Both the position numbers and the translations under genes were made by a program. Of a DNA stretch of 64,000 nt, positions 3,693 to 54,283 are shown piece by piece; position 1 is the first letter of the stretch, and every line of letters starts with the position of its first letter. The notes beneath the pieces are model-generated. The model ran no database searches, had not been told where the DNA came from, and saw only the letters and a program-made list of their open reading frames with translations. This DNA is from Armatimonadota bacterium (GTDB lineage Bacteria > Armatimonadota > Zipacnadia > Zipacnadales > VGFC01), in contig VGFC01000004.1 in NCBI GenBank assembly GCA_016869045.1, positions 40 to 64,039 on the forward strand. Direction: 5' to 3'.

Positions 3693-3715
3693 GGGAGGGG
3701 CCGGGGAGGTGTGGA

Positions 3716-3937: not shown

Positions 3938-3995
3938 GCCAGTCCGACGCTGAGTTCTGCCGGCGTTCGGCAGCCCAGGAACGGAGGGATACCCC

Positions 3996-6034: not shown

Positions 6035-6059
6035 AGGGAATGCGGGGACATGACCCACC

Positions 6060-6121
6060 GGGAATTGAGGGACATGACCCAATTCGGTCGTATCGAATTG
6101 GGATCGTGTCCCTCAATTCCC
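6060..6121. repeat. near-perfect 27-bp inverted repeat (GGGAATTGAGGGACATGACCCAATTCG / CGAATTGGGATCGTGTCCCTCAATTCCC) with flanking short direct repeats
   Basis: Read directly. Arms are reverse complements with 2-3 mismatches and a 7-nt loop. GGGACATGACCCA occurs twice and CCGAACTCCC twice. Sits between the URO-D-like stop (6034) and the GT4 start. Confidence 0.6.
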
Positions 6122-6163
6122 CCGAACTCCCGGCCGAACTCCCGCCCCAGAGAGGACCCGCGA

Positions 6164-7252
6164 TTGAGAGTCGTCCTTGCGGCGCTGCATTTCATCGATT
6201 ACACCGTCCACCTCGCGAACGCGATGGCGAAGCTCGCGGACACGACGCTGGTCATCGCGCGGCGGAAGGCCGAGCACATCCTCGGCGCCATCGATCCCGC
6301 GGTCACGCGCCACGAGGTCGATCTCCCGCGCGTGATGTCGCTCGGCGGGTACCTGTGGGGACGGAAGCTGGCGCGCGACATCCTCGCGATGGCGCCGGAC
6401 GTCGTCCACATGCAGGAGGTGAACCCCTGGTTCGACCTCCAGGCGCCCTGGATCGCAAAGCGGGCGGCGCTGGTGAACACGGTGCATGATGTCGAGCGCC
6501 ATCCGGGCCACCGGCAGGCGAAGCGCGTGCCCTTCATCCGGCGAATGGCGCGGCGGGCGGCGCACCGCCTCATCGTGCACGGGCAGGCGCTCAAGCGGAT
6601 GATGGTCGAGGACGAGGGCGCGCCCGAGAGCAAGGTGCATGTCATCCCCCACGGCAACTTCCTCCACTACCTCACCTGGGGCGACGCGTCGGTGCCGGAG
6701 GAGCCCGACACGGTCCTCTTCTTCGGTCGCATCTGGGAGTACAAGGGCCTGGAGTACCTCATCCGCGCGGAGCCGGCGATCTCGCAGGCAATCCCCAACC
6801 TGAAGATCATCATCGGCGGACAGGGCGAGGACTTCGCCCGCTACCGGGCGATGATGGTTCACCCGGAGCGCTTCGAGGTGCACAACGAGTTCGTGAGCCG
6901 CGATCTGTCGGCCGACCTGTTCCGGCGCGCCAGTGTCGTCGTGCTCCCGTACACGGAGGCCTCCCAGAGCGGCGTCCTGGCGTTCGCGTACACGTTCGGG
7001 AAACCCGTGGTGGTGACGAACGTCGGCAGCCTGCCGGAGGTGGTGGACCAAGGGGAGACGGGCCTTGTCGTCCCACCGAGGGATGAGGAAGCCCTCGCGA
7101 AGGCTGTCGTGGCGATTCTCGACAACCCCGAGAAGCGACGAGAGATGGGCCGCAAGGCTCACGGGAAGGCGACGACCGATCTGTCGTGGGAGAGAATCGC
7201 CGAGCGGACGCTGGCCGTCTACCGGGAGGCCGTCGCGGCGCGCCGTCTTTGA
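6164..7252 (+). CDS. glycosyltransferase family 4 (GT-B fold)
   Basis: C-terminal GT4 signature (…VLPYTEASQSGVLAFAYTFGKPVVVTNVGSLPEVVDQGETGLVVPP…). Proposed TTG start at 6164 has an AGAGGA RBS 8 nt upstream; the track ORF start (6050) lies inside the inverted repeat. Confidence 0.7.
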   Translation: MRVVLAALHFIDYTVHLANAMAKLADTTLVIARRKAEHILGAIDPAVTRHEVDLPRVMSLGGYLWGRKLARDILAMAPDVVHMQEVNPWFDLQAPWIAKRAALVNTVHDVERHPGHRQAKRVPFIRRMARRAAHRLIVHGQALKRMMVEDEGAPESKVHVIPHGNFLHYLTWGDASVPEEPDTVLFFGRIWEYKGLEYLIRAEPAISQAIPNLKIIIGGQGEDFARYRAMMVHPERFEVHNEFVSRDLSADLFRRASVVVLPYTEASQSGVLAFAYTFGKPVVVTNVGSLPEVVDQGETGLVVPPRDEEALAKAVVAILDNPEKRREMGRKAHGKATTDLSWERIAERTLAVYREAVAARRL

Positions 7253-17192: not shown

Positions 17193-18299
17193 ATGCCAAC
17201 GCTGCTCGGTCTGGCCGCCATCGCGACCTCCGTTGCTCGGGCAGGAGGTGAGACCGTGGTCGTCGAGGGCGTTGATCACTACCGCGTCTGCGAGCCGATG
17301 TTCGAGGGCCTCCGCATCGTCCTCGCGCAGCGCGGCGAAACCTACTCACCCGCATACATCCAGGGCCTCTCCGGGGCGGCCTTTCGCATCGCGGGCATCT
17401 GCCCCTGTGCGCCGACGTGCAACGGCGCGATGGGCCCTCAGGACCTCCTGAAGCTCCTCGGCTACGACTTCGAGGAGTGCACGCTGACCGGCGAGGGCCT
17501 CGACCCCGAGCGCGACGTGCCGAAGGTCGTCGAGCGCGTCACGCAGGAGATCCGCGCGGGGCGGGCGGTGCTCGTATGGCACGCCTTCACCAACGCCGAG
17601 TGGGATGTGGTCAGCGGCTTCGACGACGAGAAGGGCGAGTTCATCGGCTTCGGTTCGTACACTGCGGGCAAGCCGGATGTCTGGCGGGCCGCCCAGACGC
17701 GCATGGCCAAAGCGGTCGAGATCTGCCCGGCGTACGGGGCGCTGCTGATCGGCAAGAAGACCGGCGAACTCGACGCACGCGAGGCTGAGTTGGCGGCGCT
17801 CGAGGAGGCCATCCGCGACTGCCATGCGCCGCGAGACGCCGAGTTGGACAACGCCGGCGACAAGGAAGCGCCCTGGAAGTTCCGCAAGGGGAAGGCCTGC
17901 TACGACGCGTGGGTCCACAACTACCGCGCCAACCCGCAGAAGGTCCCGGAGGCAGGGGACCGGTACTGCCTCGGCGTCTACCGCAGCACGCACCGCATGG
18001 CCGCCGACTTCCTGCGCGAGATCGCGCCGAAGTACCCCCGGGCTGCCGGCCACTTCGGGCAGGCCGCCGTCCTGTTCGACGAGGAGGCCGACGCCCTCGA
18101 CCGCTGCTACGAGAAGCTATGTGGTGGCTGGGAGGGCTGGCAGGAGCCGAACCCGGGGAAGGCGGAGAACATGGCGGAGGCGCTGCAGGTAGCCCGCAAG
18201 CGCTACGGCGCAGCCGTCAAGGAGATCGAGCGGGGCCTTGGCGAGATCGACCCCGAGCGCGTCGAGCAGGCACACCGCCCGCCGCCTACGGCCGGTTGA
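17193..18299 (+). CDS. BtrH_N/DUF4872-like (peptidase C39-fold) domain protein, function unknown
   Basis: 368 aa; Cys-containing N-terminal motif (ICPCAPTCNGAMG), then GLSGAAFRIA and VLVWHAFTNAEWDVVSGFDDEKGEFI. Paralogous to 40855-41763 and to the C-terminus of the TPR lipoprotein. Confidence 0.45.
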   Translation: MPTLLGLAAIATSVARAGGETVVVEGVDHYRVCEPMFEGLRIVLAQRGETYSPAYIQGLSGAAFRIAGICPCAPTCNGAMGPQDLLKLLGYDFEECTLTGEGLDPERDVPKVVERVTQEIRAGRAVLVWHAFTNAEWDVVSGFDDEKGEFIGFGSYTAGKPDVWRAAQTRMAKAVEICPAYGALLIGKKTGELDAREAELAALEEAIRDCHAPRDAELDNAGDKEAPWKFRKGKACYDAWVHNYRANPQKVPEAGDRYCLGVYRSTHRMAADFLREIAPKYPRAAGHFGQAAVLFDEEADALDRCYEKLCGGWEGWQEPNPGKAENMAEALQVARKRYGAAVKEIERGLGEIDPERVEQAHRPPPTAG

Positions 18300-19029
18300 C
18301 GTAGAGGTCCCCAAACGGCCGATGGGACTTCGGTCGCAGAACGGTGAAGGGCTCCGACAGAATCTCCCCCAGCGTGAAGCCGAACGCCTCCGCAAACGCT
18401 TCCAGGTCCTTCTCGATCGCCTTCATCTCCCCGGCATCCGCCTCGGCGACCGCGATGTGCTCGGTCGAGACGTGGTACGGATCGTACGCACCGCGCAGGT
18501 AGATCTGCCCGCCGTGGATGCCGGTCCCGCAGTAGTCGCCCACCAATGGCTTCCCGTCGCGCTCCATGCCCAGCAGCACCAGCGTCCCGCCCGCGAGGTA
18601 CTCGCCAAAGAAGTCGCCCGCCGTGCCCCCTGCCACGATGACCGGCGACTGGGTCTTGTACGCCTTCATGTGGATGCCCACGCGGTACCCCACATGGCCC
18701 TTCACATGGACGCTCCCACCCCTCATGCCGTAGCCCACGACATCCCCCGCATCCCCATGCACGAACAGCCGCCCCGCATTCATCGTGTTCGCGCAGCCAT
18801 CCTGCGCGTTGTTCATGACATGCACCGTCGGCCCATCCATGAAGGCCGCCAGGTCGTTGCCCGGCACGCCGTTTACCTCGACCGTCACATCGTCGCCGCG
18901 CAGTCCGCCGCCGATGTAGCGCTGACCGTTGACGTTACGCAGCACGATCCGCGTCTCGCCCCGGCCGACCGCCTCGCGAATCTGCTCGTTAAGCTGCTTG
19001 TAGTACACGCCTCGTGCGTCGATCTCCAT
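18286..19029 (-). CDS. glutamate synthase alpha-subunit C-terminal (GXGXG) domain protein (split/archaeal-type GltS)
   Basis: Repeated GxGxG-like glycine beta-helix motifs (VEVNGVPGNDLAAFMDGPTVHV…VHGDAGDVVGYGMRGGSVHVKGHVGYRVG). Confidence 0.7.
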   Translation of the reverse strand: MEIDARGVYYKQLNEQIREAVGRGETRIVLRNVNGQRYIGGGLRGDDVTVEVNGVPGNDLAAFMDGPTVHVMNNAQDGCANTMNAGRLFVHGDAGDVVGYGMRGGSVHVKGHVGYRVGIHMKAYKTQSPVIVAGGTAGDFFGEYLAGGTLVLLGMERDGKPLVGDYCGTGIHGGQIYLRGAYDPYHVSTEHIAVAEADAGEMKAIEKDLEAFAEAFGFTLGEILSEPFTVLRPKSHRPFGDLYVNRP

Positions 19030-19036
19030 CCGAACC

Positions 19037-19145
19037 TCACGTCTCAGGTCGCGTGTCTCGTGTCTCGCGTTTCAGGTCGCTGCCGCGCCTTGCTGGCGCC
19101 CCCTGCCGTGCAACCCGAAACCCGAAACTCGAAACCCCAAAACCA
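19037..19145. repeat. family C intercistronic module (gtctcaggtcgcgtgtctcgtgtctcgcgtttcaggtcgc … aacccgaaacccgaaactcgaaacccc)
   Basis: Direct and inverted short repeats between the GltS FMN-domain gene and the GXGXG-domain gene on the minus strand. Confidence 0.5.
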
Positions 19146-19148
19146 GCC

Positions 19149-20666
19149 TTACTCCCCCGCGTGCTTCACTCCCAGCACGTCGAGGCTCTCCTTCGTCAGG
19201 TTGACGCCGCGCAGGCGATCGCGCGAGCCGCGCAGCGATTCTACCGCATTCACGCCCAGCGCGCCGAGTATCTCCTTGAGTTCCTCGGTCCAGCCCTCCA
19301 GTAGGTTGGCGGCCATCTCGGCGCGCACGGACGGGTCCAGGCGCCGGGTCAACTCCGGCCGCTGGCTGGTGATCCCCCACGAGCAGTTGCCCGTGTGGCA
19401 CTGCTGGCAGACGTGGCAGCCCAGCGTGATGAGCGCCGCGGTGCCGATGGCAACCGCATCCGCGCCCAGGGCGATGGCCTTCGCCACGTCGGCCGACGAG
19501 CGGATGCTCCCCGCGCAGATGATCGAGGCCTCGTGGCGGATGCCGTCCTTTCGGAGGCGCTCATCCACCGCCGCCAACGCGATCTCGACGGGGATGCCCA
19601 CGTTGTCGCGGATGACCGTCGGCGCAGCGCCCGTGCCGCCGCGAAAGCCGTCCAGGTAGACGTAATCGGCGCCCGCCCGGACGATCCCCGAGGCGATGGC
19701 CCCGACGTTATGCACCGCCGCGATCTTCACGCCGACGGGCTTCTCGTACTCCGTGGCTTCCTTCAGGGCGTAGATGAGCTGCCGTAGGTCCTCGATCGAG
19801 TAGATGTCGTGGTGCGGCGCGGGAGAGAGGGCGTCCGAGCCGATGGGAATCATGCGGGTGCCCGCGATGTCCGAGGACACCTTGCGTCCGGGTAGGTGCC
19901 CGCCGATCCCGGGCTTCGCGCCCTGCCCGATCTTGATCTCGACCGCCGCCGAGTTCCTCAGATACCCCTCATGCACGCCGAACCGACCCGACGCGCACTG
20001 GACGATGGCGCAGTCCGCGTAGTCCTGCAGGTCCTCGTGCAGGCCGCCCTCGCCCGTGTTCCATAGCGTGCCGATCTTCTTCGCGGCCATCGCCAGTGAC
20101 TTCTGCGCGCTCAGGCTGATCGAGCCCAGCGACATCCCGGCAAAGATGATCGGCGTGCTGATCCGCAGTTGCGGCGCGATCTTCGTCTTGAGCTTCGGCT
20201 TGCCGTCGGGGCCTGTCTCCACCTCGATGCGCTCGGGCTTGCGCCCGAGGTACGTGCGCAGCTCCATCGGCTCGCGCAGCGGGTCGATCGAGGGATTCGT
20301 CACCTGGCAGGCATCGAGCAGCAGGTTGTCCCACAGCACGGTCCACGGGCGGTCGTTGCCCATCGCGCTGAGCAGCACGCCGCCGCTCTCCGCCTGCCGC
20401 ACGATCCGCTTCTGCATCGCCGGGCTCCACACATCGTGGCCGGCCTGCGCGTAAGGCCGCTCGTGGATTTGGATGCACTGCTGGGGGCAGTGATCCGTGC
20501 AGAAGTGACACGCCACGCATGGGTTCTCGCCCGGCATGACCCGGTCGGTGAACTCCAGCGCGTTGAAGCCGCAGCCCATCACACACCGCTTGCACTTGAT
20601 GCAGCGGTCGTGGTGGACGACCTGCACGAACTCACCGGGTACGGTCGACTTCGTTGCCAGCCTCAT
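19149..20666 (-). CDS. glutamate synthase FMN-binding domain protein with N-terminal 2x[4Fe-4S] ferredoxin domain (archaeal-type GltB core)
   Basis: CIKCKRCVMGC and CVACHFCTDHCP clusters, then the GltS FMN domain (…GEGGLHEDL…KIGQGAKPGIGGHLPG…DGFRGGTGAAP…). Confidence 0.8.
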   Translation of the reverse strand: MRLATKSTVPGEFVQVVHHDRCIKCKRCVMGCGFNALEFTDRVMPGENPCVACHFCTDHCPQQCIQIHERPYAQAGHDVWSPAMQKRIVRQAESGGVLLSAMGNDRPWTVLWDNLLLDACQVTNPSIDPLREPMELRTYLGRKPERIEVETGPDGKPKLKTKIAPQLRISTPIIFAGMSLGSISLSAQKSLAMAAKKIGTLWNTGEGGLHEDLQDYADCAIVQCASGRFGVHEGYLRNSAAVEIKIGQGAKPGIGGHLPGRKVSSDIAGTRMIPIGSDALSPAPHHDIYSIEDLRQLIYALKEATEYEKPVGVKIAAVHNVGAIASGIVRAGADYVYLDGFRGGTGAAPTVIRDNVGIPVEIALAAVDERLRKDGIRHEASIICAGSIRSSADVAKAIALGADAVAIGTAALITLGCHVCQQCHTGNCSWGITSQRPELTRRLDPSVRAEMAANLLEGWTEELKEILGALGVNAVESLRGSRDRLRGVNLTKESLDVLGVKHAGE

Positions 20667-20686
20667 CTTGGCGCCTCAACCGTAGC

Positions 20687-20746
20687 GTCGTAGGTCGGGA
20701 TTCCAATCCCGACACTGCCTTTCTCAACACAATCCGTGCTGCGCCC
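20687..20746. repeat. family B partial copy (right half: cgtcgtaggtcgggattccaatcccgacactgcctttctcaacacaatccgtgctgcgccc)
   Basis: Shares the internal hairpin GTCGGGATtCCAATCCCGAC and the right terminal repeat TCAACACAATC with the full copies at 30672 and 59041. Confidence 0.6.
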
Positions 20747-20755
20747 AAACGCGCC

Positions 20756-21853
20756 TCAGCTCGTCACACTCTCATCGAGCCATCCGATGACCGGATGCCC
20801 CGCCTGCGGCGTCCAGACCCGGTCCGGCGACTCGCACATGATATGGATCGCCGCTTCCTCGCTGGAGATGAAGAGCATGTCGTCCTTCTCCGCCGCCACC
20901 ATCGGACGGAGCTTGATCCGGTCGTTGAACCCCACCAGGCCGCGCGAATGCCCGAACAGGATCGCGAACGGCCCGTTGACGGTCGCGGGCGCGTAGGTGA
21001 TCCGCAGGGCTTCGAGCAGTTCGGCCTCCTCCGGGTCCATGTCCGGGCGGTCAATCGTCTTCCAGAACGGCGGGGCGAGCACCTCGCACGCCATCTCGAT
21101 CGACAGCCCATGGCGGCGGATCAGCAAGTCCAGCAGGTACACCATCACCTCGGTGTCGGTCTGCAACGTGCACTTGTAGTCGAACTGCTCGAGGTACCTC
21201 CGGTTGATTCCGTACGACGAGATCTCGCCGTTGTGGACGACCGAGTAGTCCAGCAGGCAGAACGGATGCGCGCCGCCCCACCACGCCTGCGTGTTGGTCG
21301 GGAAGCGACCGTGGGCGGTCCAGATGTAGCCCTCGTACTCCTCCAGTCGGTAGAACCGCCCGATGTCCTCCGCGAAGCCCACCGCCTTGAAGGCGCCCAT
21401 GTTCTTCCCCGAGGAGAAGATGTACGCGCCCTCGATCTCGTCGTTCACCCGCATGACCGTCTTCATCACCGTGTCGGCTTCGCCTTCGGTCTCGCTGCGG
21501 GTGCTGCGAGGCGTCGCGAAGTACCGCCACAGGTTCGGCGCGTCGCCGATCCCCTCCGTCGGGCGCGTGGGGATGAACTCCGAGTGGGCGATGCTGAAGT
21601 GCCCCCGCAGCAGGTCCTCGGTGAGGTCCTGGGCCTGATCGCTGTAGTACATCGTGTGCAGGGCGTAATGATCGGCGTAGTCGGGGTAGATGCCGTATCC
21701 GGCGAAACCGCCGCCCAGGCCGTTGCCGCGATCGTGCAAGTTGGCGATGGCCCGGATCGGCACCTCGCCCGAGACCTTGCGGCCCCGGCGGCTGATCAGC
21801 CCGGCCAGGCCGCACCCCGAGATCTCCTTGGACCAGTCCCAGCGATGCCTCAT
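20756..21853 (-). CDS. class-II glutamine amidotransferase domain protein (GltS N-terminal domain, stand-alone)
   Basis: N-terminal nucleophile Cys in …ISGCGLAGLISRRG…, then Ntn-hydrolase GATase-II motifs (…YIWTAHGRFPTNTQAWWGGAHPF…HNGEISSYG…). Confidence 0.8.
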   Translation of the reverse strand: MRHRWDWSKEISGCGLAGLISRRGRKVSGEVPIRAIANLHDRGNGLGGGFAGYGIYPDYADHYALHTMYYSDQAQDLTEDLLRGHFSIAHSEFIPTRPTEGIGDAPNLWRYFATPRSTRSETEGEADTVMKTVMRVNDEIEGAYIFSSGKNMGAFKAVGFAEDIGRFYRLEEYEGYIWTAHGRFPTNTQAWWGGAHPFCLLDYSVVHNGEISSYGINRRYLEQFDYKCTLQTDTEVMVYLLDLLIRRHGLSIEMACEVLAPPFWKTIDRPDMDPEEAELLEALRITYAPATVNGPFAILFGHSRGLVGFNDRIKLRPMVAAEKDDMLFISSEEAAIHIMCESPDRVWTPQAGHPVIGWLDESVTS

Positions 21854-21866
21854 GCGGAATGCTCCG

Positions 21867-21985
21867 AACGACGGTTACAGGTCTCGGGTTTCGGGTCTCG
21901 GGTTACGGACACAGCCACTCCAACTGCCGCTCCGCCGGCGCCAAGTCCCGGCGGCAACCCGAAACTCGAAACCCGAAACGGCCTC
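21867..21985. repeat. family C intercistronic module: GTCTCGGGTTTCGGGTCTCGGGTT …51 nt… AACCCGAAACTCGAAACCCGAAAC (long imperfect inverted repeat)
   Basis: Read directly. On the minus-strand mRNA it lies just 5' of the GATase start codon. Confidence 0.55.
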
Positions 21986-23303
21986 ACTTGCCCTCGGCGA
22001 GCACTGCCTGCAGCTCCTCGACGCCGCTGTCCGACACCTCCGGCAGCCCGAGCTTCTGGCGCTGGGCCTTCGAGGGCTTCGTGAGCTTGCCGGTCTTCTT
22101 GAAGGCCTCCAGCCCGGACAGGATGGCCTTGGGTGCCAGCCCGCGCTCGATGGCCAGCCGCTTCAGGGCGCGCATCGGCTCGATCATCCCGAACCGCTGG
22201 AAGCAGCGTTCGTGGCACTCGTAGCACTCCAGGCACCGCCAGATGTGCTCGTGCCCCAGCACCTCCTCGACGCGCCCCTCGACGATGGCCTGCATCAGAT
22301 CGAACGCGCTGTACGCCTCGTCCGTGCGATGGGCGGCGCAGACATCGCTGCAGGCCTGGCACTCCAGGCACTTCCGGAGCGCGACCATGTCCACGCCCTC
22401 CAACACGCCCGTCACGCGCTCCGCCCGCGCAACCCACCCCCGGGCCGCCTCCTCCATCGGCACGCGGTGCATGCCCAGGGCCAGCTCCTCCACAGGGATG
22501 CCCATCGACAGCGCGATCAGCTCCATCAGGTAGGCTACCGGCGTCTCGAACTCCTCGCCCTCGCGCCGAAAGCCGTATTGCTGGATGTCGTACTGCATGA
22601 AGCACGCCGGGCAGCTCACGCACAGGCAGTCCACACCCACCTCCCGCAGCTCCGCCAGCTTGTCGCGGGTGAGCTTCGCCCCCTCCTCCACCAGCCCCGC
22701 CGTGTTCTGCGTGCCGCCGCAGCACATCAGCTTCGTCTCGTAGTCCACCGACTTCGCGCCGATGGCCTCGACGATCGCGTCGAACTTCCGCGGGTTCAGC
22801 GGGTCGTCGGCGTTCACGTCCACGCTTGGCCGCGACTGGTGGCAGCCCGCGTGGACCGCCACGCGCAGCCCGGCCAGCGGCAGCGTCACGTGCTTCCCAA
22901 GGTACTCGAGCCCGATCTCGTCGTGCAGGAGATCCAGCAGGTGGAAGACCCTCACCGCGCCGCGGTACGTCCGCCCGACGCGTGCCAGCCGCCGGTTCAC
23001 TTCCTCCCGCAGGTCGCGGTGCAGCCCCAGCTCCCGCGCGGCCCCCGCCAGCGACCCCACGCAGCCGTTGCACGGGCTGAATAGGTCCACACCCGCCTCC
23101 TCCGCGATCGCTAGGTTGCGGGCGGCGGTGACCAGCCAGTTCAGCTCCGACTCGTTCTTCACTACCGACTTCTCGGGGCAGCACGTGAGGCCGTCCAGGT
23201 CTACGAACTCGAACCCGAGGCGATCAAGCACGAGCCGCGTGCTCTTCTCCATGAAGGGGAAGCGCCCGGCGATGAAGCAGCCCCAGAACGCTCCGAGACC
23301 CAT
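21984..23303 (-). CDS. heterodisulfide-reductase-like Fe-S protein: HdrB-type CCG domains fused to an HdrC-type 2x[4Fe-4S] module
   Basis: Two CCG-type cysteine-rich domains (…LTCCPEKS…, …KLMCCGGTQNT…CVSCPACFMQYD…), then CxxCxxC…CP ferredoxin motifs (CLECQACSDVC, CLECYECHERC). Start placed at ATG 23303 (MGLGAFWG…); an alternative ATG at 23252 (MEKST…). Confidence 0.55.
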   Translation of the reverse strand: MGLGAFWGCFIAGRFPFMEKSTRLVLDRLGFEFVDLDGLTCCPEKSVVKNESELNWLVTAARNLAIAEEAGVDLFSPCNGCVGSLAGAARELGLHRDLREEVNRRLARVGRTYRGAVRVFHLLDLLHDEIGLEYLGKHVTLPLAGLRVAVHAGCHQSRPSVDVNADDPLNPRKFDAIVEAIGAKSVDYETKLMCCGGTQNTAGLVEEGAKLTRDKLAELREVGVDCLCVSCPACFMQYDIQQYGFRREGEEFETPVAYLMELIALSMGIPVEELALGMHRVPMEEAARGWVARAERVTGVLEGVDMVALRKCLECQACSDVCAAHRTDEAYSAFDLMQAIVEGRVEEVLGHEHIWRCLECYECHERCFQRFGMIEPMRALKRLAIERGLAPKAILSGLEAFKKTGKLTKPSKAQRQKLGLPEVSDSGVEELQAVLAEGK

Positions 23304-23728
23304 CGGTCCCAGCCTTTCCTCGCCTACAGGCCGTCCGGCCGGGTACGGGATGTTCGTGGCCGGAGGGGCAGAGTAACGGATTCCGTTCTCGCGCGTCAAG
23401 TGGCGCGCGGTGTTTCTCGGCTCGTATAGCGCGTCTCGGACCCCGAATCCGGCCAACACAGGCCCACCGCGCCCTGTTCCGGCCGCTTCGCCCAGCGGGC
23501 GCTCGCCCTGCCGGGGGCTTTCCGGTTGGCTTCCGGTCGAGGCGCCCGGAGTGTCGCGGTTGGGTACGTCGCCCCGCCTTCGGGGACCAGGAGAGAGGGC
23601 CGCCGGGCGGTACAGGCGGCAACGGGGCGGCAAATCCTGGGGGGCGGGGGCCAAGGAAGAGCCGGCGCCTCATCAGGGAGCCGAGGCGCCGGCTGTTTGC
23701 TGCTCGCGAAGGGAGAGGCCCGAACGGC

Positions 23729-27297: not shown

Positions 27298-27318
27298 GCT
27301 TCGCACAAACACGGGAAT

Positions 27319-27378
27319 AGTGGGGCGGGCATTCTTGCCCGCCAAGGGGCCCCGGCGGGCAAGAATGCCCGCCCCACT
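27319..27378. terminator. perfect 25-bp inverted repeat (AGTGGGGCGGGCATTCTTGCCCGCC / GGCGGGCAAGAATGCCCGCCCCACT) with a 10-nt palindromic loop, downstream of the HEAT gene
   Basis: Arms are exact reverse complements. It lies 22 nt after the stop and is followed by GTTTCC. Candidate strong transcription terminator or protein-binding palindrome. Confidence 0.5.
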
Positions 27379-27419
27379 GTTTCCGTATCTCTGAGGGACC
27401 CAAGTAGGAGGGCCTTCCG

Positions 27420-28178
27420 ATGGCCGGTAGTCGGCTAACGGCCGCCGCCCGGTACTTCCGGACGGCGGTCGATCTGCTTCAGAGGATCGCGGACGACCAG
27501 GCCGACGCGATGGAGCAGGCCGCGCAGAAGATCGCCGGCGTCGTGCGCCGCAGTCGGCTCGTCCACACCTTTGGCTGCGGCCACTCGGGCCTCCTCGCTC
27601 AGGAGATCTTCTACCGCTCGGCGGGCCTGATGCTCGTCAACTACGTCCACGCCCCCGGCCAAACCCTCGACGTGCGGCCCGTACGGATTACCAGCCATTT
27701 CGAGCGCCTGAGCGGCTACGCGGAGATCCTCGCCGCCGGCCAGGACATCCTACCCGACGATGTCGTCATCGTCATCTCCAGCTCCGGTCGCAACGCCGCC
27801 CCCATCGAGTTCGCGATCGAAGCGAAGCGCCAGGGCGCCCTCGTGATCGCCCTCACCTCCCTGATGATCGCCGCCTCCGGCGTGAAGAGCCGCCACGCGA
27901 GCGGCACCCTCCTCCACGATCACGCAGACCTCGTCTTGGACAACCACCTCGACCCGGGCGACGCCATGGTGGACCTGGACAACTTCGCCCAGCGCGTCGG
28001 CCCGATGTCCACTGTCCTCGGCGCGGCGATCCTGCAGGCGGTCGTGGCCCGCGCCATCGAGATCCTGGCCGACGAAACAACGGACCTGCCGGTCTTCATC
28101 AACGCCAACGTGGACGGCGGCACCGAGCACAACGAGCGGTGGATCGCCCGCCTCTCCGGCCAGGCGAGACATCTGTAA
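27420..28178 (+). CDS. SIS (sugar isomerase) domain protein, UPF0309-like
   Basis: VHTFGCGHSGLLAQE…VIVISSSGRNAAPIEFAIEAKRQGALVIALTS is the SIS phosphosugar-binding fold. Confidence 0.6.
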   Translation: MAGSRLTAAARYFRTAVDLLQRIADDQADAMEQAAQKIAGVVRRSRLVHTFGCGHSGLLAQEIFYRSAGLMLVNYVHAPGQTLDVRPVRITSHFERLSGYAEILAAGQDILPDDVVIVISSSGRNAAPIEFAIEAKRQGALVIALTSLMIAASGVKSRHASGTLLHDHADLVLDNHLDPGDAMVDLDNFAQRVGPMSTVLGAAILQAVVARAIEILADETTDLPVFINANVDGGTEHNERWIARLSGQARHL

Positions 28179-28225
28179 CAGGCAAGCAGGAGACTCGCGC
28201 GGGTCCGTCGAACCACCCACAAAAC

Positions 28226-28342
28226 GGGAATCCGCGATTCTCGTCCGAGCTGTTCCCGTGTAGGGGCGCGATTCATCGCGCCCGCCCATGTAGGGGCGCC
28301 ATTCATGGCGCCCAAGAACCGATACCGCGGATTCTCATACAG
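28226..28342. repeat. family A element copy 1 (MITE-like: GGGAATCCGCGATTC… two hairpin units …CAAGAACCGATACCGCGGATTCTCATACAG)
   Basis: Units tgtaggggcgcgattcatcgcgccc and atgtaggggcgccattcatggcgccc, each a 7-bp-stem hairpin with TTCA loop; ends are an imperfect inverted repeat (GAATCCGCG…CGCGGATTC). Lies upstream of the AOR gene. Confidence 0.7.
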
Positions 28343-28380
28343 ACCCCCGACCACCACGGATCGGCGAAAGGGGAAGCGTC

Positions 28381-30258
28381 ATGGCGATCAAGGGCGTGCT
28401 ACACCGACTGGCCTTCGTGGACCTGAACACCGGCACGGTGACCTACGAGGACCCGGGCGACGAGCTGTACGAGAAGTACCTCGGCGGCTACGGGCTCGGC
28501 GCATACATGCTCTACACGCGGCAGAAGCCCGGCCTCGACGCGCTGGCGCCCGAGGCCATGCTCGGTCTGCTGACCGGCCCGCTCACCGGCACCGACGCGA
28601 TCACCGGCAACCGCTTCATCGCCGTCGGCAAGTCGCCCAAGACGGGCACCTGGGGCGATGCGAACTGCGGCGGGTACTTCGGCCCGGCCCTCAAGGAGGC
28701 GGGCCTCGATGGCGTCTTCTTCACGGGAGCAGCCAAGGACCCGGTCTACGTCCTCGTGCAGAATGGCGAGGTGACCGTCGAGTGCGCCGCTGACTACTGG
28801 GGGCTCGACAGTGTCGAGACCGAGGCGAAGTTCCAGGCGGCCTACGGCAAGCGGGCGCGTGTGGCGTGCATCGGGCCTTCGGGCGAGCGCGTGAGCGCCC
28901 TGGCCGCGATCATCAACGATGGCGGGCGCGCCGCCGGCCGCTCGGGGCTCGGCATGGTCATGGGCTCCAAGAAGCTCAAGGCCGTCGTGGCCGTCCCGTC
29001 AAGCCCGGTCGAGGTCGCCGACGCCGATGCCCTGAAGGCCGTTCGCCAACGCGTGCTGGGTGAGTACTACAAGGCGGGCAACCCGGCCTACGAGCTGTTC
29101 AGCAGCTACGGCACCTGCGGAATCACCGCCGGCTCGGTCCAGAAGGGCGACGCGCCGATCAAGAACTGGTCGGGCACCGTGCACGACTTCCCCACCGCCG
29201 AGAAGATCAGCGACGATGCGGTCATCGCCACCCAGACCCGCAAGTACGGCTGCTGGCGCTGCCCCCTTGCTTGCGGCGGGCACGTGAAGGTGGCGGAGGG
29301 CGCCTACGAGGTCGAGGGGCACAAGCCCGAGTACGAGACGCTCGCGGCCTTCGGCGCCATGTGCCTCAACGACAACCTCGCCTCCATCACGGTCTGCAAC
29401 GACATCTGCAATCGGATGGGAATGGACACCATCTCGGCCGGCTGCACTGTGGCCTTCGCCATTGAGTGCTACGAGCGCGGCATCATTACTAAGGAGGACA
29501 CGGGCGGCCTGGAGCTGACCTGGGGCAACCACGAGGCCATCGTCAAGGTCACCGAGCAGATGGGCGACGGCACCGGCTTCGGCGGCATCGTGCTGGGCGA
29601 TGGCATCAAGACCGCCGTAGGCCGGATCGGCCCGGAGGCCGAGGTGGCGGCCATGCACTGCGCCGGCGAGGAGCTGCCGATGCACGACCCGCGCTGCAGC
29701 CCCGGCATCGGCGCCAGCTTCGTGATCGACGCAACGCCGGGCCGTCATACGCAGTACGGCAGCTGGCTCGACGAAGCCGCCTTCCTCCCGCCGGACCTCG
29801 GCCAGCCCCTCCACGCCGACAAGTATGTCTACAACGGCAAGGGCGAGAACGGCGCCTACGTCAGCCGTTGGGGGCACGTCGTCAACGCTTCGGGCCTCTG
29901 CATGTTCGGCTGCACCGTGACCCCGGCGCCCGCCGTGCCCGAGTTCCTCACCCACGCCATGGGCGTCGAGTACACGATGGACAAGGTCCAGGAGGTCGGC
30001 GGCCGGATCGGCGCCCTCCGCATGGCCTTCAACATCCGTGAGGGCGTCCGCAATCCGCTGGACTTCAAGCTCCCGCGCCGCGTGCTGGGCGACCCACCGC
30101 TGGAGCAGGGCGACACCGCCGGCGTCACGGTGGACAACATCGTCGAGATCAAAGACTACTGCGCCGCGATGGGCTGGGACCCGGAGACCGGCGTGCCCAG
30201 CCGGGAGACGCTCGAGGGGTACGACCTGGGCTTCGTCGCGAAGGACCTGCACGGGTAG
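28381..30258 (+). CDS. tungsten-containing aldehyde:ferredoxin oxidoreductase (AOR family)
   Basis: 625 aa with AOR_N and AOR_C domains throughout: …NRFIAVGKSPKTGTWGDANCGGYFGPALKEAGLDGVFFTGAA…; Fe-S and pterin motifs including GCWRCPLAC. Confidence 0.85.
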   Translation: MAIKGVLHRLAFVDLNTGTVTYEDPGDELYEKYLGGYGLGAYMLYTRQKPGLDALAPEAMLGLLTGPLTGTDAITGNRFIAVGKSPKTGTWGDANCGGYFGPALKEAGLDGVFFTGAAKDPVYVLVQNGEVTVECAADYWGLDSVETEAKFQAAYGKRARVACIGPSGERVSALAAIINDGGRAAGRSGLGMVMGSKKLKAVVAVPSSPVEVADADALKAVRQRVLGEYYKAGNPAYELFSSYGTCGITAGSVQKGDAPIKNWSGTVHDFPTAEKISDDAVIATQTRKYGCWRCPLACGGHVKVAEGAYEVEGHKPEYETLAAFGAMCLNDNLASITVCNDICNRMGMDTISAGCTVAFAIECYERGIITKEDTGGLELTWGNHEAIVKVTEQMGDGTGFGGIVLGDGIKTAVGRIGPEAEVAAMHCAGEELPMHDPRCSPGIGASFVIDATPGRHTQYGSWLDEAAFLPPDLGQPLHADKYVYNGKGENGAYVSRWGHVVNASGLCMFGCTVTPAPAVPEFLTHAMGVEYTMDKVQEVGGRIGALRMAFNIREGVRNPLDFKLPRRVLGDPPLEQGDTAGVTVDNIVEIKDYCAAMGWDPETGVPSRETLEGYDLGFVAKDLHG

Positions 30259-30272
30259 CGGCAGGTGCTCGA

Positions 30273-30548
30273 ATGTCGGTAACGGTGCGCGTTCCACCGT
30301 ACTGGAGGCGACACACCGGCCGCAGGGCCGATGTCTCCGCCGAGGGCGCGACGGTCGGCGAGGCCCTCGCGGATGTCGTGCGGCAGCATCCCGAGCTGGG
30401 CCCGCTCCTCTATGGGGACGACGGGGAACTTGCTGCCGGCCTCTCCGTGTTTCTGAACCGTGAATCGATCACCCGGCGAGATGGTGAGCGCACCCCCGTC
30501 TCGCCGGGCGACTCTCTCATGGTTGTGCTTGCCATTGCGGGAGGGTGA
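30273..30548 (+). CDS. MoaD/ThiS-family sulfur-carrier-like protein (C-terminal GG)
   Basis: 91-aa beta-grasp-sized ORF ending …MVVLAIAGG; 15 nt downstream of the AOR stop. Confidence 0.55.
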   Translation: MSVTVRVPPYWRRHTGRRADVSAEGATVGEALADVVRQHPELGPLLYGDDGELAAGLSVFLNRESITRRDGERTPVSPGDSLMVVLAIAGG

Positions 30549-30560
30549 ACCTCAGCCAAA

Positions 30561-30819
30561 CAGGAATCCGCGATTCCCGTCCGAGCCGTTCCCATGTAGG
30601 GGCGCGATTCACCGGCCGTTGTTGTGTAGGGGCGCGATTCATCGCGCCCGCCCATGTAGGGGCGCCATTCAGATTGTGTTGAGAAAGGGCCCCGTCAAAG
30701 GAAGAACCCTCTCCTACGCGCTCTACGTGGCTCGTAGGTCGGGATACCAATCCCGACAATGCCTTTATCAACACAATCTTCATGGCGCCCAAGAACCGAT
30801 GTCGCGGACTCCCATACAG
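30561..30819. repeat. family A element copy 2, interrupted by a nested family B MITE
   Basis: Left end CAGGAATCCGCGATTCCCGTCCGAGCCGTTCCC plus hairpin units; right end CAAGAACCGATGTCGCGGACTCCCATACAG. The third hairpin unit ggcgccaTTCA|…|TTCAtggcgcc is split by the insertion. Confidence 0.7.
30672..30778. mobile_element. family B MITE (107 bp; TIRs GATTGTGTTGAGAAAGG / CCTTTATCAACACAATC; internal hairpin GTCGGGATACCAATCCCGAC) inserted in a family A hairpin loop with a 4-bp TTCA target duplication
   Basis: Read directly. TTCA at 30668-30671 and 30779-30782 flanks the insert. Removing the insert restores the canonical unit ggcgccattcatggcgcc. Confidence 0.7.
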
Positions 30820-30855
30820 CCGGATGCCCCTCACACAACCACCCGGAGCCGACCC

Positions 30856-32301
30856 ATGAGCAGCATGTGGGCAGTCGTCGCGACGCCCGCCCGACGGATG
30901 GCGGGCGTTCTTGCCATCGCCGCCTTGGCCACCGGCCTCGGCCACGCCGCCGATGAGGAGACCTGCGTCACCTGCCACGAGCAGGCCACGCCCGGCATCG
31001 TCCTGCAGTGGCGCAGTTCGGAGCACGCCAAGGTAGGCGTGCAGTGCTCGCAGTGCCATGCCGCCAAGGCCGGTGAGCCTGACGCGTTCGACCACTACGG
31101 CGAGACGGTCGCGATCATCGTCTCGCCCCAGGACTGCGGGCAGTGCCACGCCAGGGAATTCGCGGAGCAGAAGGGCTCGCACCACGCGAAGGCCGGGGAG
31201 ATTCTCGGCTCGCTCGACAACCTCCTGGGCGAGGTCGTCGGTGGCGAGCCCGCGGTTAACGTCGGCTGCCGGCAGTGCCACGGGTCCATCGTGAAGGTCG
31301 ATGCCAAGGGGCAACCGACGCCCGGCACGTGGCCGAACACGGGCATGGGCCGGATTAACCCCGACGGCTCGCGCGGCTCCTGCTCGGCGTGCCATGCGCG
31401 ACATGCGTTCAGCGTGCGCCAGGCCCGGCAGCCGGAAGCGTGCGGCAAGTGCCACCTCGGCCCGGACCACCCCCAGATGGAGGTCTGGGAGGAGTCGAAG
31501 CACGGCATCATGTACCGCGCCACCCGCGAGGAGCTGAAGCTCGATGCGGACCCCTGGCGAGCCGGCAAAGAGTACTTCGTCGGCCCGACCTGCGCCTCGT
31601 GCCACATGAGCGCAGCGGGAGAGCAGCCGGTCACCCACGATGTCGGCGAGCGCATCTCCTGGACGCTCCGCCCCGCGATCTCCGCGAAGCTCAACCTCAT
31701 CGTGCTGGAGAACGGAGCGCAGGTCGATGTCCTCGGCGACGACCCGCAGCTCCCGAAGGTCGGCGACAGCTACACGCCCCCAGGGAAGGAGGCCCAGAAG
31801 GTCCGCGCGGTGCTCAACTGGCAGGCGCGGCGCGAGCGGATGCAGGATGTCTGCCGACAGTGTCACGCCGTGCCCTTCGTGCAGCAGGCCTACGCTCAGT
31901 TCGACGAGGCCGTCATCCTGTACAACGAGAAGTTCGCGAAGCCCGGCAAGGCCCTCATCGACGACCTCCGCAAGGCCGGGAAGATCACGCCGGTGGACTT
32001 CGACGACCCGATCGAGTGGACGTGGTATGAGCTATGGCATCACGAGGGTCGGCGGGCGCGCCACGGCGCAGCGATGCAAGGCCCTGACTACGCGTGGTGG
32101 CACGGCATCTACGACGTGGCCAAGACGTTCTACCAGCACCTCCTCCCGCAGGTCCGGGAGGTAGCCGGACCGGAACTCGCGGACGAGCTGCTGAAGCGGG
32201 ACGTCTACACCGTGCCCGGACACGAGTGGCACCGCGATGGCATGAGCAAGGACGCGCTGGAGAAGATGCAGCAGTTCTACCGAGAGCGCTACGGCCAGTA
32301 G
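30856..32301 (+). CDS. octaheme c-type cytochrome, hydroxylamine-oxidoreductase (HAO/eHao) family
   Basis: ATG at 30856 (MSSMWAVVATPARRMAGVLAIAALATGLGHA signal). Eight CxxCH motifs (CVTCH, CSQCH, CGQCH, CRQCH, CSACH, CGKCH, CASCH, CRQCH) in about 480 aa plus …WHHEGRRARHGAAMQGPDYAWWHG…. The track ORF start at 30460 lies in repeat DNA. Confidence 0.55.
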   Translation: MSSMWAVVATPARRMAGVLAIAALATGLGHAADEETCVTCHEQATPGIVLQWRSSEHAKVGVQCSQCHAAKAGEPDAFDHYGETVAIIVSPQDCGQCHAREFAEQKGSHHAKAGEILGSLDNLLGEVVGGEPAVNVGCRQCHGSIVKVDAKGQPTPGTWPNTGMGRINPDGSRGSCSACHARHAFSVRQARQPEACGKCHLGPDHPQMEVWEESKHGIMYRATREELKLDADPWRAGKEYFVGPTCASCHMSAAGEQPVTHDVGERISWTLRPAISAKLNLIVLENGAQVDVLGDDPQLPKVGDSYTPPGKEAQKVRAVLNWQARRERMQDVCRQCHAVPFVQQAYAQFDEAVILYNEKFAKPGKALIDDLRKAGKITPVDFDDPIEWTWYELWHHEGRRARHGAAMQGPDYAWWHGIYDVAKTFYQHLLPQVREVAGPELADELLKRDVYTVPGHEWHRDGMSKDALEKMQQFYRERYGQ

Positions 32302-32321
32302 CCGTTTGGAGGGGCCGCATA

Positions 32322-32345
32322 CGAGTCCCGCCCTGGCGGGACGGA
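32322..32345. terminator. stem-loop GTCCCGC-CCTG-GCGGGAC between the convergent HAO-family gene and the SBP gene
   Basis: 7-bp perfect stem read from sequence, 24 nt after the HAO stop and 18 nt from the minus-strand SBP stop. Possible bidirectional terminator. Confidence 0.35.
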
Positions 32346-32362
32346 GTATCCGGCCCAAATCC

Positions 32363-33703
32363 TCACGGCTTGTGAGCCGCCCGGTACTGGTTGATTCGGC
32401 GCGCAGCGTCGCGGCAGCCCTGGGCGGCGCTCTTCCTGCCGATCCAGATGTTGTCCAGCTCGTTCTGGTACAGCTCCCGGATCTCCGCCCAATCGGGCAC
32501 GTTCGGCGGATCGACGCCGTAGCTCAGGGCCTCGGCAAACACCCTCCGCCCCTGCCCGGTGTCCCCCTTGACGTATGGCCCGTTGATGACGGATAGCCGC
32601 GAGGGCATCTTCTCCAGCTTCTCTGCCATGAACTGCTGCGACGCCGCGCTCATCAGGAACTCGAACAGCTTCCAGGCCGCGTCCGGGTGCTTGCTCTGCG
32701 TGCAGATCGCGTAGTTCTCGGTGCCCAGCATCGTGGCCCGCCGCTTCTTCATCGGCAGCGGCGCGACGCCCCACTGCAGGCCCTGGCTCTGCGTGGCTTC
32801 GCTCAGCGCCTGGATGTCCCACGGGCCGGTCATGTACATCCCGATCCTCCCGCTGCTGAACTCCTCCCGCCCCTCGTTACGCTCCTTCGGTTGGGACTGG
32901 GGTGTCACTCTATGGACCTGCAGCAGGTCGGCCACGAACTTCACCGCCTCGATGTCCTCGGGCGAGTCCAGTGTGCACTTCGAGCGGTCGCGGCTGAAGA
33001 TGTCGCCCCCGTTCTGCCAGAACCACGGGTACAGCCGTGCCTCCCAGAAGTCGATGAAGCACCCCCACTGATCGGTCGTTCCATCGCCGTTCGTGTCCCG
33101 CGTGAGCTTCCTCGCGGTCTGCAGGTATGCGTTCCAATCCCACGGCTCCTGCTTGTCGGGGTAGGGCACGCCCGCGGCGTCGAACAACGCCTTATTGTAG
33201 AAGAGCGCGTACACCGACGTGTAGCGGGGCAGCGAGTACAGCTTGCCCTTGTGCCGGCACAGGTTGAGCAATCGCTCGTTGAAGTCCGACACCGACAGGT
33301 CTTGGGATTTCGCCAGGTAGTCGTCCAGCGGCAACAGGGCGCCCTTGCTCGCCAGCGGCACGAAGTACGCGCCGTGTATCGAAACCAGGTCCGGCGCCAC
33401 CTGGGCCGCGATCGCCCCCTGCAGCTTGGCCATGGGCTCCTTGCTCCCGGCGGCATTCTGCAGCTCCACGCTGATGTCCGGGTTCGCCTTCCGGAACTCG
33501 TCCAGCAACGCCTCGTTCGCCTCCTCCTCCGCCGCCTCCGTCCACGTGTACATGGTGATCTCAACGCCGCCGGACTTCCCCTGCGGCGCCGAGGTCGTCC
33601 CCGCCTTCTCCTCTTTGACGACAGTACACCCAACCACGAGAGCAACGGACAGGGCGACAACACCCAGAACCGTGCAGTGCTTCAACGCGGGACTTCCTCT
33701 CAC
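32363..33703 (-). CDS. ABC transporter substrate-binding protein (family 1 / carbohydrate-type)
   Basis: Signal plus lipobox (VGCTV), then sugar-SBP composition (…MYTWTEAAEEEANEALLDEFRKANPDISVELQN…YSLP…). No cognate permease or ATPase is adjacent in this window. Confidence 0.7.
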   Translation of the reverse strand: MRGSPALKHCTVLGVVALSVALVVGCTVVKEEKAGTTSAPQGKSGGVEITMYTWTEAAEEEANEALLDEFRKANPDISVELQNAAGSKEPMAKLQGAIAAQVAPDLVSIHGAYFVPLASKGALLPLDDYLAKSQDLSVSDFNERLLNLCRHKGKLYSLPRYTSVYALFYNKALFDAAGVPYPDKQEPWDWNAYLQTARKLTRDTNGDGTTDQWGCFIDFWEARLYPWFWQNGGDIFSRDRSKCTLDSPEDIEAVKFVADLLQVHRVTPQSQPKERNEGREEFSSGRIGMYMTGPWDIQALSEATQSQGLQWGVAPLPMKKRRATMLGTENYAICTQSKHPDAAWKLFEFLMSAASQQFMAEKLEKMPSRLSVINGPYVKGDTGQGRRVFAEALSYGVDPPNVPDWAEIRELYQNELDNIWIGRKSAAQGCRDAARRINQYRAAHKP

Positions 33704-54190: not shown

Positions 54191-54283
54191 GCCGTTCCCA
54201 TGTAGGGGCGCGATTCATCGCGCCCAAGTGTAGGGGCGTGATTCATCACGCCCAAGAACCGCTGTCGCGGATTCCCCCATACG
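54191..54283. repeat. family A element copy 5 (GCCGTTCCCA - two hairpin units - CAAGAACCGCTGTCGCGGATTCCCCCATACG)
   Basis: In the divergent region between the S8 protease and purL; same unit and tail as copies 1-2. Confidence 0.7.

Follow-up and report, generated by a model that had tools for sequence, protein, structure and literature searches.

Aldehyde:ferredoxin oxidoreductase with a MoaD-like carrier beside a probably reductive octaheme cytochrome c in an Armatimonadota genome

Introduction

Do an aldehyde:ferredoxin oxidoreductase (AOR), a small ThiS/MoaD-like carrier protein and an exported octaheme cytochrome c work together when they are encoded one behind the other, or are they merely neighbours? 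The question is raised by a locus in a stretch of 64,000 nucleotides (the window hereafter) of contig VGFC01000004.1 (GCA_016869045.1, positions 40 to 64,039, forward strand), a region with a G+C content of 68% that NCBI assigns to an Armatimonadota metagenome-assembled genome (MAG). The initial annotation, made from the sequence alone, had read the cytochrome, a member of the hydroxylamine oxidoreductase (HAO) family, as the only adjacent redox partner of an AOR without its usual Fe-S and FAD partners, and had proposed that repeat elements assembled or moved the group. This account was partly supported: the observation was accurate, and the functional and evolutionary reading was mostly not supported. 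The locus is overall ordinary and consists of known kinds of genes. In the explanation that I consider probable, two independent functional modules stand side by side, an AOR-MoaD cassette and a reductive octaheme cytochrome. The genes in question all lie on one strand:

28381..30258, + strand: AOR, 625 aa, closest to the single-subunit type, predicted cytoplasmic (AFOR_N, AFOR_C; 1AOR; NCBI MBM3471829.1)
30273..30548, + strand: ThiS/MoaD beta-grasp protein, 91 aa, C-terminal Gly-Gly (PF02597)
30856..32301, + strand: octaheme cytochrome c, predicted to be exported, HAO/IhOCC clade, 481 aa (PF13447; apparently without the cross-link Tyr)

An AOR closest to the single-subunit type

The AOR matched both Pfam domains of its family far above their cut-offs (AFOR_N, 226 bits against 29.8, E 4.7e-67; AFOR_C, 322.8 bits against 27, E 4.3e-96), and its best match in the Protein Data Bank (PDB) was P. 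furiosus 1AOR, aligned end to end over residues 9-612 (E 4.7e-90), which confirms the identity first given to it. Enzymes of the AOR family oxidise aldehydes to acids and reduce ferredoxin. In the 1AOR alignment the [4Fe-4S] ligands (CxxCxxxC and a distal Cys) were kept, CWRCPLAC pairing with CYACPIGC and GLCMF with GLCLF, as were the two catalytic residues, Glu in the PEYE motif (paired with PEYE) and His in the H(I/T) motif (GRH paired with GCH). The protein has no signal peptide.

Scores against the single-subunit AORs 1AOR, 9G7J and 9MQX were 301-306 bits (306 for 1AOR), as opposed to 250 bits against AorB (8C0Z). Genes for the small subunit with four [4Fe-4S] clusters and the FAD subunit of AorABC-type enzymes were not beside the AOR gene, whose neighbours are a SIS-domain gene, the ThiS-like gene and the cytochrome gene. 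The three-subunit Aor type was rejected on these two grounds, and judged by its sequence the AOR is closest to the single-subunit, ferredoxin-dependent type. Single-subunit AORs work without AorA or AorC (PMC6365974); the Fe-S and FAD subunits would therefore be absent because of the type of enzyme, and there is no gap for the cytochrome to fill. An AOR in the cytoplasm and a cytochrome exported from it, with no conduit gene adjacent, likewise argue against the cytochrome as the redox partner.

With the P. furiosus enzyme (1AOR), 9G7J and 9MQX the window AOR shares a full-length alignment, the [4Fe-4S] Cys and pterin motifs and the lack of extra subunits, although in contrast to P. furiosus AOR it stems from a mesophile-type MAG. 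With A. aromaticum AorABCDE (PMC6365974; 8C0Z) the locus has an AOR-family catalytic subunit and MoaD-like genes in common, but the AorA polyferredoxin and AorC FAD subunit genes of that system have no counterpart in the window and the similarity is lower. The metal of the cofactor is presumably tungsten rather than molybdenum. No tungstate transporter or riboswitch was found within the window: Rfam gave no match in the whole window at gathering scores or in 28100-30900 at E up to 1, and therefore no Moco/Wco riboswitch, and a Pfam survey of the rest of the window returned no ccm, NapC/NrfH, Rnf, tungstate transport or Moco genes.

The carrier protein and the AOR-MoaD cassette

The carrier gene starts 14 nt past the AOR stop codon (initially given as 15), and its product ends in ...AIAGG and matched PF02597 with 38.7 bits (cut-off 22.5), which bears out its description as a Gly-Gly-tailed MoaD/ThiS-like protein. 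In a survey of 80 metagenomic AOR loci, a ThiS-like Gly-Gly open reading frame (ORF) adjoined AOR in six lineages. It was absent from all of the more than 85 cytochrome loci without AOR, and across at least 170 loci ThiS was strictly AOR-adjacent, with no instance elsewhere.

That MoaD-like genes occur beside AOR was already known, as the initial annotation had said. A 2006 study described MoaD genes that are strictly adjacent to AOR and sporadic in archaea and bacteria, and suggested a probably mobile cluster for the synthesis of the molybdopterin of the tungsten cofactor (Iyer, Burroughs & Aravind, PMC1779556); the linkage is also treated by Makarova & Koonin 2010 (PMC2948915), and aorD and aorE have been described as MoaD-like maturation factors (PMC6365974). 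AOR and ThiS of the window fit this known, published AOR-MoaD mobile cassette: a Gly-Gly ThiS/MoaD protein beside AOR and a sporadic spread are found in both (PMC1779556, PMC2948915). Unlike the published cluster, the window has no MoeB, MoaE, MoaA or pyridine-disulfide oxidoreductase genes, and its carrier is nearer to CysO.

From context and literature, not from its sequence, the carrier is presumably the MoaD for the tungsten cofactor. Alternatively, it might serve another target, as a carrier of the CysO kind or as a ubiquitin-like modifier, which seems rather unlikely and would be compatible with two independent modules. Its best solved relatives were of the CysO type (4N6E_B and 3DWG_C, E ~1e-10, end to end), with SAMP1 next, it stayed under the cut-offs of the equivalog models moaD_arch (24.7 against 49.5 bits) and SAMP1 (45.4 against 60 bits), and the window showed no gene for MoaE or MoeB. 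The ortholog of a sister lineage (L089 2028-2309, L090 1709-1990) also points in this direction: it ends in ...AMAGGNQ, not in ...GG, and would therefore need C-terminal processing before thiocarboxylation. A different target is hard to reconcile with the strict adjacency to AOR in six lineages and nowhere else in at least 170 loci, and the literature reads AOR-linked MoaD as a cofactor maturation factor (PMC6365974, PMC1779556, PMC2948915).

An octaheme cytochrome of the HAO/IhOCC clade

The listed ORF of the cytochrome begins at GTG 30460 (613 aa) and reads through a repeat; the true start is ATG 30856 (481 aa), which is backed by an identical JGI protein (P0001, 481 aa), by relatives of 473-483 aa and by a GGAG 10 nt upstream. 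The NCBI model (MBM3471831.1, 606 aa) also starts inside the repeat (30460-30855), ~125 aa too early. Translated repeats led to spurious peptides of the CRGAIHRA and GRDESRPY type in several window ORFs, and the locus gives the practical warning that gene callers over-extend ORFs because of repeats in the spacers.

The cytochrome has eight CxxCH motifs (residues 37, 64, 94, 138, 176, 196, 246 and 333), CHLGPDHPQMEVWEESKHG from residue 199 and WHHEG from residue 394, and matched PF13447 with 90 bits (cut-off 21.9). Its N-terminus (MSSMWAVVATPARRMAGVLAIAALATGLGHA/ADEE) resembles a Sec-type signal peptide; given a Sec leader, maturation would take place outside the cytoplasm.

All significant solved relatives belonged to the HAO clade. 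The best was IhOCC (Ignicoccus hospitalis, 4QO5) with E 1.9e-50, or E 2.3e-63 with the family profile, followed by N. europaea HAO (NeHAO, E 2e-20), Kustc0458 (E 3e-20), kustc1061 and hydrazine dehydrogenase (HDH). An AlphaFold2 model built from a 21-sequence alignment reached a mean pLDDT of 64.6 and stayed below 50 in the heme core; with this low-pLDDT model Foldseek returned the same five HAO-clade structures at TM ~0.25, a support at family level only, and NrfA and ONR appeared only at E > 1. The cytochrome has no CxxCK motif, and an NrfA or ONR identity was rejected for this reason and for the insignificance of the matches. By sequence, then, the cytochrome is placed in the HAO/IhOCC clade and not with NrfA, ONR or OTR, the grouping on which the initial annotation had wanted a check, and its description there as an exported HAO-family octaheme protein holds. 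In the scheme of Soares et al. (PMC9250108) it is a clade 1 protein.

IhOCC has the eight CxxCH motifs, heme-4-type active-site motifs and C-terminal helices in common with the window cytochrome, and neither shows the cross-link Tyr. Identity is ~23-30%, however, and the window protein falls in a bacterial subfamily of its own, which is highly conserved, with 60-78% identity across phyla. More than 8000 matches to this family with 58-78% identity were found across phyla (Armatimonadota, Bacteroidota, Acidobacteriota, Myxococcota, Nitrospirota, Gammaproteobacteria and others), and the proteins of Thiomargarita, Parabeggiatoa and purple sulfur bacteria were 53-57% identical to the window cytochrome. 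These taxa are reported to have homologs of an octaheme cytochrome of orange Guaymas Beggiatoaceae, for which activity as a nitrite reductase, a hydroxylamine oxidase and a hydrazine oxidase is described (PMC6449678). This protein, BOGUAY_0691, is of similar length (479-512 aa) and probably shares the subfamily of the window cytochrome, as suggested by taxon overlap and by a supplementary alignment whose corrupted machine-read text allowed a rough motif and length check only.

Distribution of the cytochrome

Orthologous cytochromes of 50-69% identity were surveyed in 80 species-level genome loci with 10-kb flanks, and an AOR or ThiS homolog was present within 10 kb in none of them (0/80). Six of seven other contexts examined had neither gene near the cytochrome, the exception (P0002) being the trio of a close relative. 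The nearest relatives and their neighbours are as follows:

P0002, 78% identity: AOR-ThiS upstream
P0003, 73% identity: Fer4/AF_0155, Hcp, YwiC
P0008, 73% identity: no relevant neighbour
P0004 (Armatimonadota), 71% identity: Rrf2
P0007, 71% identity: Fer4/AF_0155 and an aldo-keto reductase
P0035 (Armatimonadota), 68% identity: no relevant neighbour

A poly-[4Fe-4S] protein of the AF_0155 type adjoins two close relatives of the cytochrome (L005 4526-9827; L177 6001-9451), together with Hcp and YwiC genes at one locus and a gene for aldo-keto reductase, another aldehyde-active enzyme, at the other. Recurrent neighbours of the orthologous cytochromes were NarL-type and Crp/Fnr regulators and NapA-like and FccAB-like genes. 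A secreted TPR protein of ~150 aa was encoded 3' of the orthologous cytochrome at 41 of 83 loci (median distance 89 bp), mostly in Gammaproteobacteria (e.g. L029 11478-11957), and may be a dedicated partner or maturation factor of the cytochrome. Gammaproteobacterial genes of the BOGUAY_0691 type usually precede such a protein; in contrast, the window has none, and no TPR gene stands beside its cytochrome.

Distribution of the AOR

Seen from the AOR side, the order AOR-ThiS-cytochrome of the window type occurred only with AORs that were at least 85% identical (L088, which equals L001, L091 and L092). In these relatives the whole order HAD-HEAT-SIS-AOR-ThiS-cytochrome-SBP is syntenic with the window, where the outer anchors are:

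27420..28178, + strand: SIS-domain sugar isomerase-like gene, upstream synteny anchor, outside the unit
32363..33703, - strand: ABC solute-binding protein (SBP), downstream synteny anchor

The trio is thus kept in close relatives, while co-location is not general (0/80 cytochrome genomes). A sister lineage of two contigs (L089 and L090; AOR 85%, ThiS 78% identity) has AOR-ThiS followed directly by a convergent SBP gene and no cytochrome. Even among close relatives, then, the cytochrome is a unit of one gene that can be separated from the others. In a neighbour-joining tree of AORs, one subfamily comprised the window clade, a clade of L097 and L098 and two clades without ThiS or cytochrome; the sister clades L093-95, L114 and L099/100 had neither gene.

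L097 and L098/L112, whose AORs are 96% and cytochromes 92% identical to one another, have the order histidine kinase, HAO-family octaheme cytochrome, ThiS (Gly-Gly), AOR, GntR regulator. Their AOR is 57.5% identical to that of the window. Their cytochrome, of 30% identity to the window's, is a much closer relative of IhOCC (E 4e-123); the close relatives of IhOCC are L098-type proteins and not the window subfamily. The nearest relatives of the L098-type cytochrome lack AOR and stand in the orders cytochrome-GntR (L168) and ferritin-cytochrome-radical SAM (L169/L170). In the L097/L098 lineage it was apparently ThiS-AOR that was inserted next to the cytochrome. Between ThiS and AOR, L098 (5759-5929) has ~220 bp more than L097, with a 56-aa ORF that has no Pfam match.

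ORFs with at least three CxxCH motifs were found among the 80 AOR loci only in the window and L097/98 lineages, and all of them were HAO-family octahemes. By rough estimate, the chance of such a gene (one in ~3000) lying within two genes of a given AOR is ~0.1-0.2%, and at most 0.1 chance adjacencies are expected across ~50 lineages, again roughly. The window cannot be counted because it prompted the search, which leaves one extra case of AOR-cytochrome adjacency with a p no better than ~0.1, a suggestive but not decisive value.

Two modules or one unit

If the two modules are independent, the first would work in the cytoplasm, where a single-subunit metallopterin/[4Fe-4S] AOR would oxidise aldehydes and reduce ferredoxin, and where the Gly-Gly carrier, once thiocarboxylated, would supply the dithiolene sulfurs of the pterin cofactor, as conserved adjacency and literature suggest. 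In the periplasm, the Sec-exported octaheme would reduce nitrite, hydroxylamine or NO in detoxification or ammonification, with electrons from quinol or a periplasmic cytochrome pool and not from AOR. The reductive role is suggested by the clade, by the missing cross-link Tyr (treated below) and by the neighbours of related cytochromes elsewhere (Hcp, Rrf2, Fnr/NarL, Nap). With a cytoplasmic AOR and an exported cytochrome, direct electron transfer between the two would be excluded. In one narrow Armatimonadota clade the cytochrome gene lies 40-47 bp behind the cassette and would probably be read from the AOR-ThiS transcript. In the window genome two copies of an element resembling a miniature inverted-repeat transposable element (MITE) or repetitive extragenic palindrome (REP) were inserted later, before AOR and into the ThiS-cytochrome spacer, with the second gaining a nested element.

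That the three genes form one functional unit, as a redox route or as a shared stress regulon, I consider possible but doubtful. In the redox version, ferredoxin would take low-potential electrons from aldehyde oxidation by AOR to a membrane complex encoded elsewhere, which would pass them on to the octaheme reductase in the periplasm; in the regulon version, selection would keep the operon since aldehydes, hydroxylamine and NO are reactive and give oximes together. Both versions draw on the common strand of the genes and on the repeat-free relatives L088, L091 and L092, where ThiS and the cytochrome are 40-47 bp apart and the spacer is made up of a small GC hairpin plus ribosome-binding site and ATG; from these spacers, the cytochrome is probably co-transcribed with AOR-ThiS. 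They also draw on the independent L097/L098 lineage with its cytochrome-ThiS-AOR order and other cytochrome subfamily, on the finding that the only ORFs with at least three CxxCH motifs in 80 AOR loci are HAO-family octahemes, and on the Fe-S protein and aldo-keto reductase beside a close cytochrome relative. A redox route would have to bridge two compartments with no conduit or quinol dehydrogenase gene adjacent, and the distribution argues against both versions: AOR was found in 0/80 genomes and was absent in 6/7 other cytochrome contexts, L089/L090 lack the cytochrome, the AOR sister clades L093-95, L114 and L099/100 lack both ThiS and cytochrome, and with the window itself discounted only one extra lineage speaks in favour.

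Several points nevertheless weigh against two fully independent modules. The 40-47-bp spacing in the relatives suggests a single operon, and shared regulation or physiology is likely. The recurrence in L097/L098/L112, in another order and with a 30%-identical cytochrome, exceeds the expectation for unlinked genes and hints weakly that the co-location is selected. No gene for an electron donor of the NapC/NrfH type is found near the cytochrome, the characterised cytochrome of orange Beggiatoaceae is connected with that of the window through shared taxa and corrupted alignment text, and the carrier is by sequence nearer to CysO than to canonical MoaD.

A bolder and somewhat less likely proposal is that AOR-MoaD and cross-link-free HAO-family cytochromes have been joined repeatedly, at least twice, for one anaerobic or stress physiology. 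This could be aldehyde-driven, ferredoxin-mediated reduction of nitrite, hydroxylamine or NO, or a common defence against hydroxylamine or NO and reactive aldehydes. If true, it would be a previously unrecognised link from the aldehyde metabolism of tungsten enzymes to the nitrogen cycle, and if the adjacency of AOR and cytochrome is selected, a new coupling of aldehyde oxidation to nitrogen-oxide reduction. If the conservative explanation with two independent modules is true, little changes and an Armatimonadota example of the AOR-MoaD cassette is added. The locus also adds a member to a very widespread, barely characterised subfamily of reductive HAO-like proteins, which may play a part in the turnover of nitrite or hydroxylamine in many environments.

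The cross-link column and the type of cytochrome

The absence of the cross-link Tyr marks reductive HAOs (Ferousi et al., PMC8042395; PMC9250108). The NeHAO C-terminus was displayed from the PDB with the help of a HaoA rebuilt from a frameshifted true hao cluster (L171). A C-terminal fragment of the window cytochrome did not reach HAO in a PDB search at E up to 10, and a search for full-length HAO with a 102-aa NeHAO fragment returned short fragments only. The L171 cluster (2303-6374) is of the nitrifier type (haoA, haoB, c554, cM552) and lies on a metagenome contig; several frameshifts in its haoA and haoB are probably sequencing errors.

Tyr467 of NeHAO, which is cross-linked to the catalytic heme, lies within GGWTYTEGW (...AHVNPGGWTYTEGW...), and the equivalent stretch of kustc1061 is ...AHMSMYNQTYGNG.... 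When the part between heme 8 and the C-terminus was aligned with MAFFT, over a short stretch and by sequence only, the Tyr467 column held the first Trp of an invariant GPDYAWWHG in the window family and a Phe in IhOCC and six L098-type proteins. In the HMMER pairing with Kustc0458, a cross-link-free protein with the motif QQDVSWWWG, a Trp also stood opposite the window Trp. The cytochrome thus shows no cross-link Tyr, the residue by which oxidative P460 enzymes are defined, and would therefore be of the reductive type by the rule of Ferousi et al. (PMC8042395); this sequence-based reading makes the reduction of nitrite, hydroxylamine or NO its most likely activity, and the label HAO-type, if meant in the oxidative sense, is not supported.

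GPDYAWWHG corresponds to 32080-32106 of the window (cytochrome residues 409-417). The Tyr of GPDY[AT]WWHG (Tyr412, with Trp414 and Trp415 behind it) was invariant in 21/21 aligned family members, 3-4 residues before the cross-link column, and many L098-type proteins also have a Tyr before that column (GADYGVF). A small doubt about the missing cross-link residue is kept by the invariant Tyr upstream.

Kustc0458 (HAOr, 6H5L; PMC8042395) and epsilonproteobacterial Hao share with the window cytochrome an HAO fold without the cross-link Tyr, with the Trp of Kustc0458 in the same column, and an expected activity in reducing nitrite, NO or hydroxylamine. Unlike Kustc0458, the window has no Kustc0457-like diheme partner, and the similarity is confined to the core with hemes 5-7 and to short motifs at the C-terminus. 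N. europaea HAO and anammox HDH (1FGJ/4FAS, 6HIF) have the superfamily, the eight-heme arrangement and an Asp-His pair after heme 6 in common with the window cytochrome; in contrast to them, it has no Tyr467 equivalent and comes without haoB, c554 and cM552, at an identity of ~20%.

An oxidative enzyme like HAO or HDH, acting on hydroxylamine or hydrazine, is a very improbable identity for the cytochrome. Its fold and motifs, among them the Asp-His pair in CHLGPDHP, are of the HAO family and would suit such an enzyme, as would the invariant Tyr before the cross-link column and the hydroxylamine and hydrazine oxidase activities reported for the native cytochrome of orange Beggiatoaceae, a probable member of its family (PMC6449678). 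The Trp in the cross-link column speaks against it, as do a score of 85.7 bits with the hydrazine_HDH equivalog model (cut-off 900), the lack of haoB, c554 and cM552 genes near the window cytochrome, unlike in the L171 hao cluster, and the cross-link-free state of its closest structures, IhOCC and Kustc0458.

Repeat elements around the cassette

The ThiS-to-cytochrome spacer of the window, 307 nt long, is filled by repeats, as initially described (~300 bp). It holds the second of two copies of an element termed family A, together with a nested element:

28227..28335, + strand: family A repeat, copy 1, ending 45 nt 5' of the AOR start codon
30563..30812, + strand: family A repeat, copy 2, oriented as copy 1, ending 43 nt 5' of the cytochrome start codon
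30672..30778, + strand: nested element, ~107 bp, with the ends GATTGTGTTGA / TCAACACAATC, inside copy 2

The copies lay where the initial annotation had placed them, but they bracket AOR-MoaD only and not the cytochrome. Both have terminal inverted repeats GGAATCCGCG / CGCGGATTC (28228-28236/28326-28334 and 30563-30573/30802-30812), which enclose two 20-nt GC hairpins in copy 1. The left end common to both copies occurs nowhere else in the window, and the common right end has no other perfect match there and one weaker match (3 mismatches) at 54247. No target-site duplication was evident for family A. The nested element interrupts the loop of the final copy 2 hairpin and has TTCA at both flanks, and ends related to it were found at 20715-20734(-) and 59041-59060(+). 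With many copies, terminal inverted repeats and no coding capacity, the family A elements can be classed as MITE/REP-like. The RNA of the ThiS-cytochrome spacer is unusually structured (z = -5.7), and no U-tract terminator was found at this spacer.

Relatives with the same gene order are free of the repeats: L001 has zero repeat units in 10.7 kb and a SIS-AOR spacer of 95 bp against 202 bp in the window. The gene order therefore predates the repeats, which were inserted later into existing spacers, followed by the nested insertion. L001/L088, L091 and L092 are only ~85% identical to the window at protein level, and exact insertion points cannot be aligned; other samples with the same strain (JGI 3300020084 and 3300020109) already had both insertions. 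A composite-transposon-like origin, with family A assembling or mobilising AOR-MoaD and perhaps the cytochrome, is extremely unlikely: two same-oriented copies with matching ends surround AOR-MoaD, the left end is unique in the window and the right end has only the match at 54247, and AOR-MoaD is regarded as a mobile cassette (PMC1779556), but L001/L088, L091 and L092 have the same order and flanks (HAD, HEAT, SIS; SBP) without the elements and with spacers of 40-47 bp, the elements are non-coding with no transposase gene nearby, and a nested insertion like that in copy 2 typically arises as elements accumulate in a spacer already present. This origin was rejected as contradicted by the repeat-free relatives.

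A scan of 27300-32600 for sigma-70 promoters and intrinsic terminators gave no match and is uninformative for this phylum. A 24-nt hairpin unit, GTAGGGGCGCGATTCATCGCGCCC, occurred 22 times in the window against 0 expected. These units lay on the + strand in 21 of 22 cases over 36 kb (window 28260-63957), with flanking genes on both strands, and formed a six-unit tandem array with a 28-nt period at 63794-63957. Elsewhere in the window (18286-23669, - strand), a split archaeal-type glutamate synthase is encoded by three genes (GATase_2, Glu_synthase+Fer4 and GXGXG), adjoined by a gene for a CCG/Fer4_8 (HdrD/GlpC-like) protein.

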